A program made the translations under genes and the position numbers. Below the pieces are notes generated by a model. The model was not told the origin of the DNA. It was given only the letters and a program-made list of their open reading frames with translations, and made no database searches. 64,000 nucleotides of DNA, taken from assembly GCF_024502345.1 (NCBI RefSeq), contig NZ_JALDNN010000001.1; one strand, written 5' to 3'. Positions 5,742 through 61,171 of the stretch are shown here, piece by piece (position 1 is the first letter of the stretch; each line of letters opens with the position of its first letter). This DNA comes from Escherichia coli. GTDB lineage: Bacteria; Pseudomonadota; Gammaproteobacteria; Enterobacterales; Enterobacteriaceae.

Positions 5742-5865
5742 TACGCCTGATGCGCTGCGCTTATCAGGCCTACGGGTAATGACTTGTAGGCCGGATAAGG
5801 CGTTCACGCCGCATCCGGCACTGGTTGCCTGATGCGACGCTTGCGCGTCTTATCAGGCCTACGGT
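5742..5865. repeat. REP/BIME cluster in sucA-sdhB intergenic region
   Basis: Multiple REP palindromes (GCCTGATGCGCTGCGCTTATCAGGCCTAC, GCCGGATAAGGCGTTCACGCCGCATCCGGC) read directly. Confidence 0.75.
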
Positions 5866-16357: not shown

Positions 16358-16508
16358 CTTGCCATGATGCCCTTTGCAGCCGGAAAGGGCATCTCTTTCA
16401 GAAAATTGCTGATTTTCCCCTTTTCCTTGATTGCTGTTATTTTTTCCTGGCCCGGCTTTCTTTATGCTGTATCGATACACCAAAGAGAAAATAATGAGGG
16501 AGCAAAGG

Positions 16509-17555
16509 ATGCCAGTTTTGCAGTGGGGAATGTTATGTGTGCTATCACTTCTCCTTTCTATTGGTTTCCTCGCGGTACATCTCCCGGCGGCATTATTACT
16601 TGGGCCGATGATCGCCGGGATCATCTTTAGTATGCGCGGGGTTACCCTGCAACTCCCCCGCTCCGCTTTTCTCGCCGCGCAGGCCATTCTTGGCTGCATG
16701 ATTGCGCAAAACTTGACCGGTTCGATCCTGACCACGCTGGCGGTTAACTGGCCGATTGTGTTAGCTATTTTACTGGTGACGTTGCTTTCCAGCGCTATCG
16801 TGGGATGGCTACTGGTGCGCTATAGCTCACTGCCCGGAAATACTGGTGCCTGGGGCTCCTCGCCTGGCGGGGCGGCGGCAATGGTCGCGATGGCGCAGGA
16901 TTACGGCGCAGATATCCGCCTGGTGGCGTTTATGCAGTATCTGCGAGTGCTGTTTGTCGCGGGGGCCGCAGTTCTGGTCACGCGAATGATGCTGGGCGAT
17001 AACGCTGAAGCGGTTAACCAGCATATCGTCTGGTTCCCGCCAGTGAGCATTAATCTCCTGCTTACTATTTTGCTCGCGGTCGTTGCCGGTACAGTGGGAT
17101 GCCTGCTGCGTCTTCCTTCCGGCACGATGCTCATCCCGATGCTGGCGGGCGCAGTGCTCCAGTCTGGTCAGCTCATCACCATCGAACTACCGGAATGGCT
17201 GCTGGCGATGGCGTATATGGCAATTGGCTGGCGGATTGGTCTTGGTTTCGATAAACAAATCTTACAGCGGGCACTACGCCCGCTACCACAAATCCTGCTG
17301 TCGATTTTTGCTCTGCTGGCTATTTGTGCGGGTATGGCGTGGGGACTGACCCGGTTTATGCACATTGATTTTATGACTGCCTACCTCGCCACCAGCCCCG
17401 GCGGGCTTGATACCGTGGCGGTCATCGCCGCAGGGAGCAATGCCGATATGGCGCTCATTATGGCGATGCAAACCCTGCGCCTGTTCAGTATTTTGCTGAC
17501 AGGGCCTGCCATTGCGCGGTTTATTTCAACCTATGCGCCGAAACGTACGGCCTAG
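16509..17555 (+). CDS. abrB: AbrB-family membrane protein (putative regulator of aidB expression)
   Basis: ORF-track 374 aa trimmed to [30 protein letters not shown] (348 aa); polytopic membrane protein. Confidence 0.88.
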
Positions 17556-18343
17556 TGCTGGCAGCCCGAACACCAGTAAAACGGGCGAGATGACAGCGTG
17601 GTTTTCTCAATGATGCCGCCACAGCGTTCGCACAGTTCGCCATCACGATGAAAAACCTTAAAGCGAAACAGCGCCCCATGATGCTTATTCTCATCCACCT
17701 GCCCCCGCGTAGCGTAAGAAAACCGAGGAATATCCAGTAACGCGTGTGCGAGTGCATCCAGTTGCGCCGCATTGAGGTCTTTCGCTTTATGATTTCCAGT
17801 CAACCCAACCTGCCAGAGGATCTCCACACGCAAATAATTGCCAAGCCCAGCCAGAAACGCCTGATCGAGCAGTAATCCAGCAAACTGACGGTTACGAAAG
17901 CGCGGCGACAATAACCGTTCTTTCACCACCTCCGGCGTCAGATTCGGATCCAGCACATCGGGACCAACGCGTTGTAAAAACGGATGCGTGGTCAGTTGTT
18001 CCGGGGTCAACATCTCAATATCCGAGGCGCTATAAAGCAGAATGGTTTTGTCAGCCGTTTGCAGTTTTACCCGCAATACTCGCGTGGTCTGCGGCTCTTC
18101 GCCGGTATCAACCACGCGCCAGACGCCATAAAGCTGATTATGGCTGTAGAGCGTTAAGTCGTTGGAAAAATGAGTTAACAACGCCTTACCACGCGTTTCC
18201 ACATGGGTAACGTGTTGACCGATAAGTTGTGATTGATAAGTTTTTAACTGCGGGAAGGCAAACCAGACATCAGTTAGTGGTTTGCCTTTGATCGCCGCCT
18301 CCAGGTTATCCGCTGCACGGCGGATCTCCGGGCCTTCAGGCAT
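17552..18343 (-). CDS. nei: endonuclease VIII (DNA glycosylase/AP lyase)
   Basis: 263-aa [29 protein letters not shown]... (Fpg/Nei N-terminal PEGPE motif) with C-terminal zinc finger CxxC...CxxC. Confidence 0.96.
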
Positions 18344-23214: not shown

Positions 23215-23340
23215 CGATGCCTGATGCGACGCTTGACGCGTCTTATCAGGCCTACGCATTTCCTGCAATTTATTGAATTTGCACAAATTTGTAGGCTGGA
23301 TAAGGCGTTCACGCCGCATCCGGCATCTGGGCTCGATTGC
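23215..23340. repeat. REP/BIME cluster between dtpD and phr
   Basis: REP palindromes GCCTGATGCGACGCTTGACGCGTCTTATCAGGCCTAC and GCCGGATGCGGCGTGAACGCCTTATCC (inverted) read directly. Confidence 0.75.
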
Positions 23341-47443: not shown

Positions 47444-48664
47444 ATGACACCAGGCGGACAAGCTCAGATAGGTAATGTTGATCTCGTAAAACAGCTTAAC
47501 AGCGCGGCGGTTTATCGCCTGATTGACCAGTACGGGCCAATCTCGCGGATTCAGATTGCCGAGCAAAGCCAGCTTGCCCCCGCCAGCGTAACCAAAATTA
47601 CGCGTCAGCTTATCGAACGCGGGCTGATCAAAGAAGTTGATCAGCAGGCCTCCACCGGGGGCCGCCGCGCTATCTCCATCGTCACCGAAACCCGCAATTT
47701 CCACGCAATCGGCGTACGGCTTGGTCGTCACGACGCCACCATCACCCTGTTTGATCTCAGCAGCAAAGTGCTGGCAGAAGAACATTACCCGCTGCCGGAA
47801 CGTACCCAGCAAACGCTGGAACATGCCCTGTTGAATGCCATTGCTCAGTTTATTGATAGCTACCAGCGCAAACTGCGCGAGCTGATCGCGATTTCGGTGA
47901 TCCTGCCAGGGCTTGTTGACCCGGACAGCGGCAAAATTCATTACATGCCGCATATTCAGGTAGAAAACTGGGGGCTGGTAGAAGCTCTGGAAGAACGTTT
48001 TAAAGTGACCTGTTTCGTTGGTCACGATATCCGTAGTCTGGCGCTGGCGGAGCACTACTTCGGTGCAAGTCAGGATTGCGAAGACTCCATTTTAGTGCGT
48101 GTCCATCGCGGAACCGGGGCCGGAATCATCTCTAACGGGCGCATTTTTATTGGCCGCAACGGCAACGTCGGTGAAATTGGCCATATTCAGGTCGAACCGC
48201 TGGGTGAACGCTGCCACTGCGGCAACTTTGGCTGCCTGGAAACTATCGCCGCCAACGCTGCCATTGAACAACGGGTGTTGAATCTGTTAAAGCAGGGCTA
48301 CCAGAGCCGCGTGCCGCTGGACGACTGCACCATCAAAACTATCTGCAAAGCCGCGAACAAAGGCGATAGTCTGGCGTCGGAAGTAATTGAGTATGTCGGT
48401 CGTCATCTGGGTAAAACCATCGCCATTGCTATCAACTTATTTAATCCGCAAAAAATTGTTATTGCCGGTGAAATCACCGAAGCCGATAAAGTGCTGCTCC
48501 CTGCTATTGAAAGCTGCATTAATACCCAGGCGCTGAAGGCGTTTCGCACTAATCTGCCGGTGGTACGTTCTGAGCTGGATCACCGCTCGGCAATCGGCGC
48601 TTTTGCGCTGGTAAAACGCGCCATGCTCAACGGTATTTTGCTCCAGCATTTGCTGGAAAATTAA
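47444..48664 (+). CDS. nagC: N-acetylglucosamine repressor (ROK family)
   Basis: 406-aa ORF MTPGGQAQIGNVDLVKQLNSAAVYRLIDQYGPISRIQIAEQSQL...; HTH plus ROK domain with zinc-binding Cys/His. Confidence 0.98.
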   Translation: MTPGGQAQIGNVDLVKQLNSAAVYRLIDQYGPISRIQIAEQSQLAPASVTKITRQLIERGLIKEVDQQASTGGRRAISIVTETRNFHAIGVRLGRHDATITLFDLSSKVLAEEHYPLPERTQQTLEHALLNAIAQFIDSYQRKLRELIAISVILPGLVDPDSGKIHYMPHIQVENWGLVEALEERFKVTCFVGHDIRSLALAEHYFGASQDCEDSILVRVHRGTGAGIISNGRIFIGRNGNVGEIGHIQVEPLGERCHCGNFGCLETIAANAAIEQRVLNLLKQGYQSRVPLDDCTIKTICKAANKGDSLASEVIEYVGRHLGKTIAIAINLFNPQKIVIAGEITEADKVLLPAIESCINTQALKAFRTNLPVVRSELDHRSAIGAFALVKRAMLNGILLQHLLEN

Positions 48665-48711: not shown

Positions 48712-49464
48712 ATGACCATTAAAAATGTAATTTGCGATATCGACGGCGTGCTGATGCACGATAACGTCGCCGTACCGGGTGCAGCGGAATTTTTGCACGG
48801 GATTATGGATAAAGGCCTGCCGCTGGTGTTGCTGACCAACTATCCTTCGCAGACTGGGCAAGATCTGGCGAACCGCTTTGCCACCGCAGGTGTCGATGTA
48901 CCTGACAGCGTGTTTTATACCTCTGCGATGGCGACTGCCGATTTCCTGCGTCGCCAGGAAGGCAAGAAAGCATATGTGGTGGGCGAAGGCGCACTGATTC
49001 ATGAACTGTACAAAGCCGGTTTCACTATTACCGATGTGAACCCTGATTTTGTGATTGTTGGCGAAACGCGTTCCTACAACTGGGACATGATGCATAAAGC
49101 GGCCTATTTCGTCGCTAACGGTGCACGCTTTATCGCCACCAACCCGGATACTCACGGGCGCGGTTTTTATCCGGCCTGTGGCGCGTTGTGTGCAGGGATT
49201 GAGAAAATCTCCGGGCGCAAACCGTTCTATGTTGGTAAGCCGAGTCCGTGGATTATCCGCGCGGCATTAAACAAAATGCAGGCACATTCGGAAGAAACGG
49301 TGATTGTCGGCGATAACCTGCGTACCGATATTCTGGCCGGCTTCCAGGCAGGTCTGGAGACGATTCTGGTGCTTTCTGGTGTTTCATCGCTCGACGATAT
49401 CGACAGTATGCCGTTCCGCCCAAGCTGGATTTACCCGTCAGTCGCTGAAATCGACGTTATCTGA
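48712..49464 (+). CDS. nagD: ribonucleotide monophosphatase (HAD superfamily)
   Basis: 250-aa ORF MTIKNVICDIDGVLMHDNVAVPGAAEFL...; HAD motif DIDGV. Confidence 0.97.
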   Translation: MTIKNVICDIDGVLMHDNVAVPGAAEFLHGIMDKGLPLVLLTNYPSQTGQDLANRFATAGVDVPDSVFYTSAMATADFLRRQEGKKAYVVGEGALIHELYKAGFTITDVNPDFVIVGETRSYNWDMMHKAAYFVANGARFIATNPDTHGRGFYPACGALCAGIEKISGRKPFYVGKPSPWIIRAALNKMQAHSEETVIVGDNLRTDILAGFQAGLETILVLSGVSSLDDIDSMPFRPSWIYPSVAEIDVI

Positions 49465-49489: not shown

Positions 49490-49615
49490 TTGGCTCTGAT
49501 GACAAACGCCAAACTGCCTGATGCGCTACGCTTATCAGGCCTACGCAGCTCCTGCAATATATTGAATTTTCATGCTTTTGTAGGCCGGATAAGGCGTTCA
49601 CGCCGCATCCGGCAT
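49490..49615. repeat. REP/BIME cluster between nagD and asnB
   Basis: GCCTGATGCGCTACGCTTATCAGGCCTAC and GCCGGATAAGGCGTTCACGCCGCATCCGGC palindromes. Confidence 0.75.
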
Positions 49616-51905: not shown

Positions 51906-51982
51906 GGCTACGTAGCTCAGTTGGTTAGAGCACATCACTCATAATGATGGGGTCACAGGTTCGAATCCCGTCGTAGCCACCA
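51906..51982 (+). tRNA. metT: tRNA-Met (elongator, anticodon CAU)
   Basis: GGCTACGTAGCTCAGTTGGTTAGAGC...CTCATAA...GGTTCGAATCC...GTAGCCACCA; cloverleaf elements and encoded CCA. Confidence 0.95.
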
Positions 51983-51991
51983 TCTTTTTTT

Positions 51992-52076
51992 GCGGGAGTG
52001 GCGAAATTGGTAGACGCACCAGATTTAGGTTCTGGCGCCGCAAGGTGTGCGAGTTCAAGTCTCGCCTCCCGCACCA
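51992..52076 (+). tRNA. leuW: tRNA-Leu (anticodon UAG)
   Basis: GCGGGAGTGGCGAAATTGGTAGACGC...TTTAGG...long variable arm...GAGTTCAAGTCTCGCCTCCCGCACCA. Confidence 0.95.
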
Positions 52077-52099
52077 TTCACCAGAAAGCGTTGTACGGA

Positions 52100-52174
52100 T
52101 GGGGTATCGCCAAGCGGTAAGGCACCGGTTTTTGATACCGGCATTCCCTGGTTCGAATCCAGGTACCCCAGCCA
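52100..52174 (+). tRNA. glnU: tRNA-Gln (anticodon UUG)
   Basis: TGGGGTATCGCCAAGCGGTAAGGCACCGGTTTTTGATACCGG...GGTTCGAATCCAGGTACCCCAGCCA. Confidence 0.93.
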
Positions 52175-52208
52175 TCTTCTTCGAGTAAGCGGTTCACCGC
52201 CCGGTTAT

Positions 52209-52283
52209 TGGGGTATCGCCAAGCGGTAAGGCACCGGTTTTTGATACCGGCATTCCCTGGTTCGAATCCAGGTACCCCAGCCA
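52209..52283 (+). tRNA. glnW: tRNA-Gln (anticodon UUG)
   Basis: Identical copy of the 52100..52174 tRNA-Gln(UUG) sequence. Confidence 0.93.
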
Positions 52284-52298
52284 TCGAAGAAACAATCT

Positions 52299-52375
52299 GG
52301 CTACGTAGCTCAGTTGGTTAGAGCACATCACTCATAATGATGGGGTCACAGGTTCGAATCCCGTCGTAGCCACCA
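52299..52375 (+). tRNA. metU: tRNA-Met (elongator, anticodon CAU)
   Basis: Identical copy of the 51906..51982 tRNA-Met sequence. Confidence 0.95.
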
Positions 52376-52423
52376 AATTCTGAATGTGTCGAATACGTTC
52401 GGCAAATTCAAAAACCAATTTGT

Positions 52424-52498
52424 TGGGGTATCGCCAAGCGGTAAGGCACCGGATTCTGATTCCGGCATTCCGAGGTTCGAATCCTCGTACCCCAGCCA
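52424..52498 (+). tRNA. glnV: tRNA-Gln (anticodon CUG)
   Basis: TGGGGTATCGCCAAGCGGTAAGGCACCGGATTCTGATTCCGG...GGTTCGAATCCTCGTACCCCAGCCA. Confidence 0.93.
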
Positions 52499-52535
52499 AT
52501 TTATTCAAGACGCTTACATCGTAAGTGCACCCAGT

Positions 52536-52610
52536 TGGGGTATCGCCAAGCGGTAAGGCACCGGATTCTGATTCCGGCATTCCGAGGTTCGAATCCTCGT
52601 ACCCCAGCCA
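52536..52610 (+). tRNA. glnX: tRNA-Gln (anticodon CUG)
   Basis: Identical copy of the 52424..52498 tRNA-Gln(CUG) sequence. Confidence 0.93.
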
Positions 52611-60093: not shown

Positions 60094-61002
60094 ATGCAAT
60101 TACGTAAACCTGCCACAGCAATCCTGGCCCTGGCGCTTTCCGCAGGACTGGCACAGGCAGATGACGCAGCCCCGGCAGCGGGCAGTACGCTGGACAAAAT
60201 CGCCAAAAACGGTGTGATTGTCGTCGGTCACCGTGAATCTTCAGTACCTTTCTCTTATTACGACAATCAGCAAAAAGTGGTGGGTTACTCGCAGGATTAC
60301 TCCAACGCCATTGTTAAAGCAGTGAAAAAGAAACTCAACAAACCGGATTTGCAGGTAAAACTGATTCCGATTACCTCACAAAACCGTATTCCGCTGCTGC
60401 AAAACGGCACTTTTGATTTTGAATGTGGTTCTACCACCAACAACGTCGAACGCCAAAAACAGGCGGCTTTCTCTGACACTATTTTCGTGGTCGGTACGCG
60501 CCTGTTGACCAAAAAGGGTGGCGATATCAAAGACTTCGCCGATCTGAAAGGCAAAGCCGTAGTCGTCACTTCCGGCACTACCTCTGAAGTTTTGCTCAAC
60601 AAACTGAATGAAGAGCAAAAAATGAATATGCGAATTATCAGCGCCAAAGATCACGGTGACTCTTTCCGTACCCTGGAAAGCGGTCGTGCCGTTGCCTTTA
60701 TGATGGATGATGCTCTGCTGGCCGGTGAACGTGCGAAAGCGAAGAAACCAGACAACTGGGATATCGTCGGCAAGCCGCAGTCTCAGGAAGCCTATGGTTG
60801 CATGTTGCGTAAAGACGATCCGCAGTTCAAAAAGCTGATGGATGACACTATCGCTCAGGTGCAGACCTCCGGTGAAGCGGAAAAATGGTTTGATAAATGG
60901 TTCAAAAATCCCATTCCGCCGAAAAACCTGAACATGAATTTCGAACTGTCAGACGAAATGAAAGCACTGTTCAAAGAACCGAATGACAAAGCACTGAACT
61001 AA
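60094..61002 (+). CDS. gltI: glutamate/aspartate ABC transporter periplasmic binding protein
   Basis: ORF-track 327 aa trimmed to MQLRKPATAILALALSAGLAQA (302 aa) with AAGGAG RBS 6 nt upstream. Confidence 0.96.
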   Translation: MQLRKPATAILALALSAGLAQADDAAPAAGSTLDKIAKNGVIVVGHRESSVPFSYYDNQQKVVGYSQDYSNAIVKAVKKKLNKPDLQVKLIPITSQNRIPLLQNGTFDFECGSTTNNVERQKQAAFSDTIFVVGTRLLTKKGGDIKDFADLKGKAVVVTSGTTSEVLLNKLNEEQKMNMRIISAKDHGDSFRTLESGRAVAFMMDDALLAGERAKAKKPDNWDIVGKPQSQEAYGCMLRKDDPQFKKLMDDTIAQVQTSGEAEKWFDKWFKNPIPPKNLNMNFELSDEMKALFKEPNDKALN

Positions 61003-61004
61003 TT

Positions 61005-61155
61005 ACAAGAACCAGGGGCGGAAATTCTAGCCCTCTCGATTGTTACGTAGCACGGACAGACTATACGCCTGATGGTCGTTCCCCATCGGGCCTGAAAACC
61101 GCAATACGCTGGGTAACAATCTTCGAGGGTAGCAGTTAACGCTGCTACCCTCTTT
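61005..61155 (+). ncRNA. sroC: SroC sRNA region (gltI 3' UTR / gltI-gltJ spacer derived)
   Basis: Non-coding 169-nt spacer ending in a strong terminator hairpin; in E. coli and Salmonella the GcvB-sponge sRNA SroC is processed from this position of the gltIJKL transcript. Boundaries approximate. Confidence 0.5.
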
Positions 61156-61159
61156 TTTC
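61124..61159 (+). terminator. rho-independent terminator (SroC 3' end / attenuator before gltJ)
   Basis: GAGGGTAGCAG-TTAAC-GCTGCTACCCTC followed by TTTTTTCT; sits 12 nt upstream of the gltJ start. Confidence 0.8.
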
Positions 61160-61171
61160 TGGAGTAGATTT

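Follow-up and report, generated by a model that had tools for sequence, protein, structure and literature searches.

The convergent genes abrB and nei of Escherichia coli share a CTAG stop-to-stop overlap that is most likely a plain one

Introduction

How does a pair of convergent genes end its transcripts when no DNA is left between the two coding sequences, and does such an arrangement serve the genes that share it? The question is raised by abrB and nei, which lie tail to tail on opposite strands, with no intergenic space, in a stretch of Escherichia coli DNA of 64,000 nucleotides (assembly GCF_024502345.1, contig NZ_JALDNN010000001.1), hereafter called the window. An earlier note, made from the sequence of this DNA, proposed that both genes end in a single palindromic CTAG with no terminator between them, and that convergent transcription could cause interference or antisense effects between a membrane regulator and a DNA repair glycosylase. 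The overlap as such is already known: it is present in the reference annotation, its class has long been described and the gene pair appears in a published list. It matters little in itself, and only a demonstrated regulatory coupling of nei and abrB would lift its significance. A small point that may be worth keeping is what a comparison across species tells of how such a pair manages with no terminator between its genes.

Results

The abrB/nei junction in E. coli

Read directly, the junction consists of C17552, T17553, A17554 and G17555 in the context ...ACG GCC TAG TGC.... The TAG at 17553-17555 closes abrB on the plus strand and the complement of 17552-17554 closes nei on the minus strand; the two coding sequences have exactly 4 nt in common, and the central TA is part of both stop codons (Table 1). 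Sequence and open reading frame ends thus bear out the shared palindromic CTAG of the earlier note. With convergent coding sequences, a single tetramer and two stops that are real protein ends, the pair is a 4-nt convergent stop/stop overlap of the YTAR type. The abrB frame encodes 348 amino acids from the ATG at 16509 and 374 from an upstream TTG at 16431, a choice that is irrelevant to the overlap because the genes meet tail to tail and only the stops count. Back-up stops stand seven codons beyond the abrB stop and six codons beyond the nei stop.

Table 1. Coordinates in the window of the features discussed in the text
Feature	Position	Strand	Basis
CTAG tetramer, both stops	17552..17555	.	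direct reading, ORF ends, RefSeq annotation, six E. coli records
abrB CDS, 348 aa	16509..17555	+	ORF list, Pfam/NCBIfam, RefSeq start in the 99.7%-identical L001 (E. coli FDAARGOS_943)
nei CDS, endonuclease VIII, 263 aa	17552..18343	-	ORF list, Pfam/NCBIfam, PDB 1K3W, neighbouring genes
GC-rich hairpin (GUAGCGGGCGUAGUGCCCGCUGU), then a U-rich tail with interruptions	17264..17286	-	pattern scan, centroid fold
Untranslated nei RNA past the stop, antisense to the final ~100 abrB codons	17242..17551	-	PMC7815308, mapped from K-12
C-rich, G-poor stretch (C/G 1.8-2.0) of abrB-sense RNA, antisense to nei	17615..17735	+	composition
CTAG sites	17552, 18705, 20609, 25346, 53540, 61027		
Rfam matches away from the junction (sroC sRNA, seven-tRNA-gene cluster, two naRNA4, two ES036)	60998-61160, 51906-52607, 1345-1415, 5789-5859, 23248-23290, 49537-49579		Rfam scan

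Both the abrB and the nei stop are genuine. The AbrB protein of the window matches Pfam PF05145 (E 2e-97) and contains the NCBIfam 'membrane protein AbrB duplication' domain (TIGR03082) twice, and its tail, ...FISTYAPK(R/Q)xx followed by the stop, has equal length in species with and without the overlap. Nei carries the Pfam domains Fapy_DNA_glyco and H2TH and is covered by the NCBIfam endonuclease VIII equivalog over positions 1-263 of 263. Its residues 2-263 align to residues 1-262 of the crystallised E. coli enzyme (PDB 1K3W), the end ...GCQH and the last residue included. The gene closes a row of four neighbours in one orientation, pxpB-pxpC-pxpA-nei. That one stop or frame might be wrong and the overlap an unreal product of annotation is hardly conceivable: Nei agrees with a solved structure and with an equivalog model up to its last residue, the AbrB tail is kept in sequence and length across genera, and a tail-to-tail overlap is unaffected by the choice of start. 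Different stop or start assignments, which the earlier note had named as what would remove the overlap, were checked for as well; the stops hold and nothing was found in favour of such a change. Compared with the K-12/PDB enzyme, the Nei of the window shows five differences (R113T, E203D, P237L, S243G and P259S), the last of which changes the final zinc-finger CxxC from CPGC to CSGC.

The same 4-nt overlap is annotated in the RefSeq record of K-12 MG1655, with nei at 745935..746726 and abrB at 746723..747769, and in four further E. coli records with complete genes, the most divergent sampled having ~94% identity. A truncated abrB fragment overlaps nei alike in a fifth record. CTAG stands at the junction in 6 of the 6 E. 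coli records read, and a 601-bp segment spanning the junction was found in 5423 of 5426 complete E. coli genomes, a count of locus presence, the tetramer itself having been read in the six records.

Some of these genomes differ around the locus. E. coli OkiPb01694 (NZ_AP042564.1, L084 1-2599) carries a prophage-like block integrated in the 3' end of abrB, ~95-105 nt before the stop, with a site-specific integrase, a cox-family regulator and an HTH protein; the block is probably P2-like. Its breakpoint corresponds to about position 17457 of the window, and the residual 108-nt abrB fragment still overlaps nei by 4 nt. This insertion suggests a phage attachment site inside abrB. In E. coli FDAARGOS_943, the genome closest to the window (L001, 7490-8601 and 1-1304), an IS1A stands at the position of K-12 ybgI with dtpD truncated alongside, and the fimbrial usher gene ybgQ, interrupted by an internal stop, has the annotation of a pseudogene.

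Of the 435 YTAR tetramers in the window, only the CTAG of abrB and nei closes two real genes. A second candidate, TTAA at 48661-48664, was rejected: it combines the stop of nagC (+, 47444..48664) with that of a spurious 164-aa minus-strand frame that merely mirrors nagD (+, 48712..49464) on the other strand. No tetramer of the window falls further below expectation than CTAG: trinucleotide content predicts ~39 sites, and 6 are present (observed/expected 0.15). Scarcity of CTAG is a recognised feature of E. coli. Since 4-nt stop/stop sharing is the commonest form of convergent overlap (PMC2174442), the arrangement of abrB and nei is not statistically surprising. If anything is slightly unusual, it is that the pair uses CTAG, a form that takes two amber stops. 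The sequence CTAG itself has no evident function, because relatives carry the other three tetramers at the same place.

The junction across species

A scan for Nei with one genome per species yielded 80 loci, a set from which S. enterica proper is absent, and both stops were located in each locus by script. The nei stop position is identical in all 80. In 13 loci abrB abuts nei with a 4-nt overlap. These belong to Escherichia (E. coli, E. whittamii and E. albertii, besides further isolates), to several Citrobacter and to one metagenome-assembled genome labelled Raoultella. All four YTAR forms (CTAG, CTAA, TTAG and TTAA) are used at these orthologous junctions; the geometry is kept and the letters vary. 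In seven loci abrB is convergent but separated from nei, by gaps of 6-946 nt: 6 nt in S. arizonae, 25 nt in C. sedlakii, 54 nt in S. diarizonae, 75 nt in a C. amalonaticus strain and 923-946 nt in three Citrobacter. No abrB was found within ~3 kb of nei in 59 loci (Klebsiella, Enterobacter, Kluyvera, Buttiauxella and others), and one locus (L034) is too short downstream of nei for reading. The conservation check proposed in the earlier note hence gave a divided answer: the overlap is kept in Escherichia and some Citrobacter but is absent from two Salmonella species and from other Citrobacter.

Two kinds of spacer deserve mention. In Citrobacter sp. R56 (L017 3846-4706), the interval between the two genes holds a 286-aa open reading frame on the strand of nei, with 9 nt separating its stop from that of abrB; the product of this frame has a hydrophobic N-terminus resembling a signal peptide. 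The nei-abrB spacers of L030 and L032, at ~930 nt, are similar to that of L017. In S. enterica subsp. diarizonae (L009 3793-3846), the 54-nt spacer (...TGCCTGGTGGCGCTACGCTTATCGGGC) appears REP-like by eye; if it is of REP type, it would represent an insertion that split an earlier overlap.

The protein ends bear on how the overlap arose. AbrB ends in ...APKRTA in E. coli and in ...APRQPA in Citrobacter, with the overlap, and in ...APKQSA in S. arizonae (6-nt gap) and ...APKQPL in S. diarizonae (54-nt gap), without it. Since the tails are equally long in both states, the overlap reflects the absence of a spacer and not a reading frame running on after loss of its stop, and extension by stop-codon mutation is ruled out as its origin. 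Overlapping and non-overlapping junctions each occur within both types of AbrB tail, STYAPK and SAHAP, which implies that the junction changed state more than once. In the overlap loci, the last codon of nei is CAY (His), or CGC (Arg) in E. albertii, and that of abrB is GCC, GTC, CAT or ACC. The last nei codon in loci without the overlap is AAA or CGG, both incompatible with it.

Termination and transcription past the stops

A pattern scan of the window found no terminator-like site at or near the junction, and RNA folds of the junction on the two strands were no better than those of shuffled sequences (z = +1.06 and -1.05), in agreement with the earlier note, which had seen no intergenic terminator. 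The GC-rich hairpin with A- and U-tracts that marks a bidirectional intrinsic terminator was not found between abrB and nei, and an Rfam scan of the whole window returned no RNA family near the junction. Across the species set, the first 80 nt past the nei stop contain a hairpin with a T-run in 0 of the 13 overlap loci and in 26 of the 59 loci without an adjacent abrB; the site often begins a few bases past the stop, and an example from Klebsiella is TAAAAAAACGCGCCTTCAGGCGCGTTTT.

The pattern scan detected one hairpin further along the nei strand, at 17286..17264 (-), ~20 nt upstream of the coordinate of the Rho region described below. An alignment of 20 orthologous segments shows other sequence in place of the hairpin's 3' arm in Citrobacter and Salmonella, and a weakened arm in E. 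whittamii. Being found only in Escherichia, this hairpin was rejected as a conserved terminator; within the genus it may act as a 3'-end stabiliser or as a weak intrinsic terminator.

Published data bear on the end of the nei transcript. Adams et al. (2021) place Rho termination at MG1655 747036 (+), in a region that they class as antisense to abrB (PMC7815308, supplementary file 2). Coverage upstream and downstream is 68/30 without bicyclomycin and 75/95 with it (score 2.87, p 7.6e-5; PMC7815308), values that come from few reads in K-12 under one condition, with a modest score and an approximate position, set by 800-nt coverage windows. By coordinate mapping, 747036 lies 310 nt past the nei stop and corresponds to position 17242 of the window. 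The RNA of the nei strand past the stop is untranslated, and its C/G ratio is 1.2-1.5 at 160-260 nt and 2.15 at 280-360 nt. On the other strand, a C-rich stretch 60-180 nt past the abrB stop (Table 1) is, from its composition, a predicted Rho-loading region. Supplementary file 2 of the same study has no entry for a 3' end or Rho region antisense to nei, no precise 3' end is given for MG1655 7464xx-7469xx in its supplementary file 1 (PMC7815308), and the TERMITe Term-seq supplements hold no abrB or nei entries. Both nei and abrB are weakly expressed; the read counts at the Rho region, 68 upstream and 30 downstream per 800-nt window of coverage, are low (PMC7815308).

ExcludonFinder (2025) places nei-abrB among 165 convergent excludons, detected in half or more of 58 RNA-seq samples from MG1655 (PMC12288877), a listing that is near-automatic when coding sequences overlap. 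The convergent read-through proposed in the earlier note is consequently upheld on the nei strand, into abrB, by the Rho region (PMC7815308) and the excludon list (PMC12288877). The interference or antisense effect that the note attached to it stays a proposal: read counts are low, and close relatives have lost the overlap with no evident effect. Overlap of the transcripts is real in at least one direction; regulatory interference is unproven.

Discussion

We consider that abrB and nei form a plain 4-nt YTAR tail-to-tail overlap of two unrelated genes, with no special regulatory role evident, and give this reading a probability of about 0.8. In each gene a pyrimidine closes the last sense codon and TAR comes next, and the opposite strand reads there the TAR stop of the partner. 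Neither protein is made longer or shorter by the arrangement, which amounts to the absence of a spacer. After its formation, purifying selection of the ordinary kind, acting on the two stops, would maintain the overlap: outer transitions from Y to Y and from R to R would be neutral, and such changes are seen among species, while any mutation of the shared TA would cost both genes their stop. Such selection is enough to account for the conservation observed. On the other hand, the geometry is kept genus-wide in Escherichia and the locus is present in 5423 of 5426 genomes, so that selection could act on the overlap itself. Other points against the plain reading are the presence of nei-abrB in the excludon list and, for the Rho termination on which it draws, a modest nei-strand score obtained from few reads.

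The genes abrB and nei leave no DNA between them in which either transcript could end. The ribosome would leave at the stop and the RNA polymerase would run on into the partner gene, making untranslated RNA, until Rho halts it within a few hundred nucleotides, as shown for the nei strand in K-12 (~310 nt) and as we infer for the abrB strand. The nei and abrB mRNAs would then carry complementary 3' tails which, at low expression, are most likely tolerated rather than used. A nei gene without a following abrB often has a classic hairpin terminator (26/59); in Escherichia no such terminator follows nei, and Rho, acting within the partner gene, seems to take its place.

The complementary tails could be more than tolerated if the locus worked as a functional excludon, in which transcription of one gene would repress the other through polymerase collision or through double-stranded RNA cut by RNase III, coupling the oxidised-base glycosylase Nei inversely to AbrB. 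We regard this as unlikely. The pair does figure among the 165 convergent excludons (PMC12288877), the nei transcript does reach ~310 nt antisense into abrB (PMC7815308) and the overlap is kept throughout Escherichia. Yet overlapping transcript boundaries, on which the listing is based, follow almost by construction from overlapping coding sequences, and at low expression collisions should be rare. Moreover, two Salmonella species and several Citrobacter have the genes 6-946 nt apart, in L017 with a gene between them, and the antisense-strand hairpin is not conserved beyond Escherichia. A more elaborate version would see the stop-to-stop junction as kept in Escherichia for use as a switch, pxpBCA-nei and abrB being antagonistic via ~300 nt of complementary 3' RNA. 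Should this be true, the switch would link oxidative-damage repair to the adaptive response to alkylation, abrB being described as a regulator of the alkylation-response gene aidB; we hold it to be a distinctly improbable extension.

Very doubtful, too, is termination in both directions driven by collision at a stem-loop on the boundary, which would give defined 3' ends near the CTAG. A model of this kind exists for convergent E. coli pairs (bioRxiv 10.1101/2022.10.23.513370), and by eye the last abrB codons of K-12, beside the CTAG, could form a palindromic hairpin of 5 bp, GCCGA-AGCGG-TCGGC. However, the model needs a stable hairpin and suits highly expressed pairs best (10.1101/2022.10.23.513370), whereas the fold here is at the level of shuffled sequence and expression is low. 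In the window this small hairpin is weaker, its stem having 4 bp and its loop 7 nt, and inspection by eye of one Citrobacter sequence showed no counterpart. Furthermore, coverage on the nei strand drops ~310 nt past the junction, in a bicyclomycin-sensitive manner (PMC7815308). The useful outcome of the analysis is a negative one, a junction with neither a hidden element nor a misannotation, and the plain overlap is the reading that we compare below with systems already described.

Comparison with known systems

Bidirectional or collision terminators (Ju et al. 2019), as far as they are described in 10.1101/2022.10.23.513370, resemble the present case in that a convergent pair needs termination in two directions. 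Unlike them, abrB and nei have no intergenic region, and no stable hairpin or U- and A-tracts at their boundary. With the convergent excludons of MG1655 the pair shares its orientation and overlapping transcription, and is listed with them (PMC12288877). Typical excludons, however, owe their overlap to long 3' untranslated regions that span intergenic DNA (mean 95 nt in E. coli), whereas in nei-abrB the coding sequences themselves overlap. Validated excludons show mutually exclusive expression (PMC12288877), while nei-abrB is listed from transcript overlap. A likeness is also found in Rho termination past a stop codon and antisense to a convergent gene, given the bicyclomycin-sensitive loss of coverage antisense to abrB; the nei-abrB region is one of many 'antisense' regions in the table of Adams et al., with a modest score of 2.87 (PMC7815308).

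The best match is the class described by Lillo and Krakauer (2007), who named four tetramers (CTAA, TTAA, CTAG, TTAG), found a modal overlap of 4 bp and counted 58 convergent overlaps in E. coli (PMC2174442). As in that class, abrB and nei are convergent coding sequences with one YTAR tetramer for both stops and no intergenic terminator, and the terminators of such 4-nt pairs must sit inside coding sequence (PMC2174442). The route favoured by Lillo and Krakauer, mutation of a stop codon, differs from that indicated here by the length of the AbrB tail, which points to loss or gain of a spacer. Huvet and Stumpf (2014) described overlaps as readily gained and lost, by-products of sequence evolution (PMC4161906). 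In nothing essential does the pair depart from the class of Lillo and Krakauer; its one particularity is that abrB and nei use CTAG, the rarest tetramer of the window.
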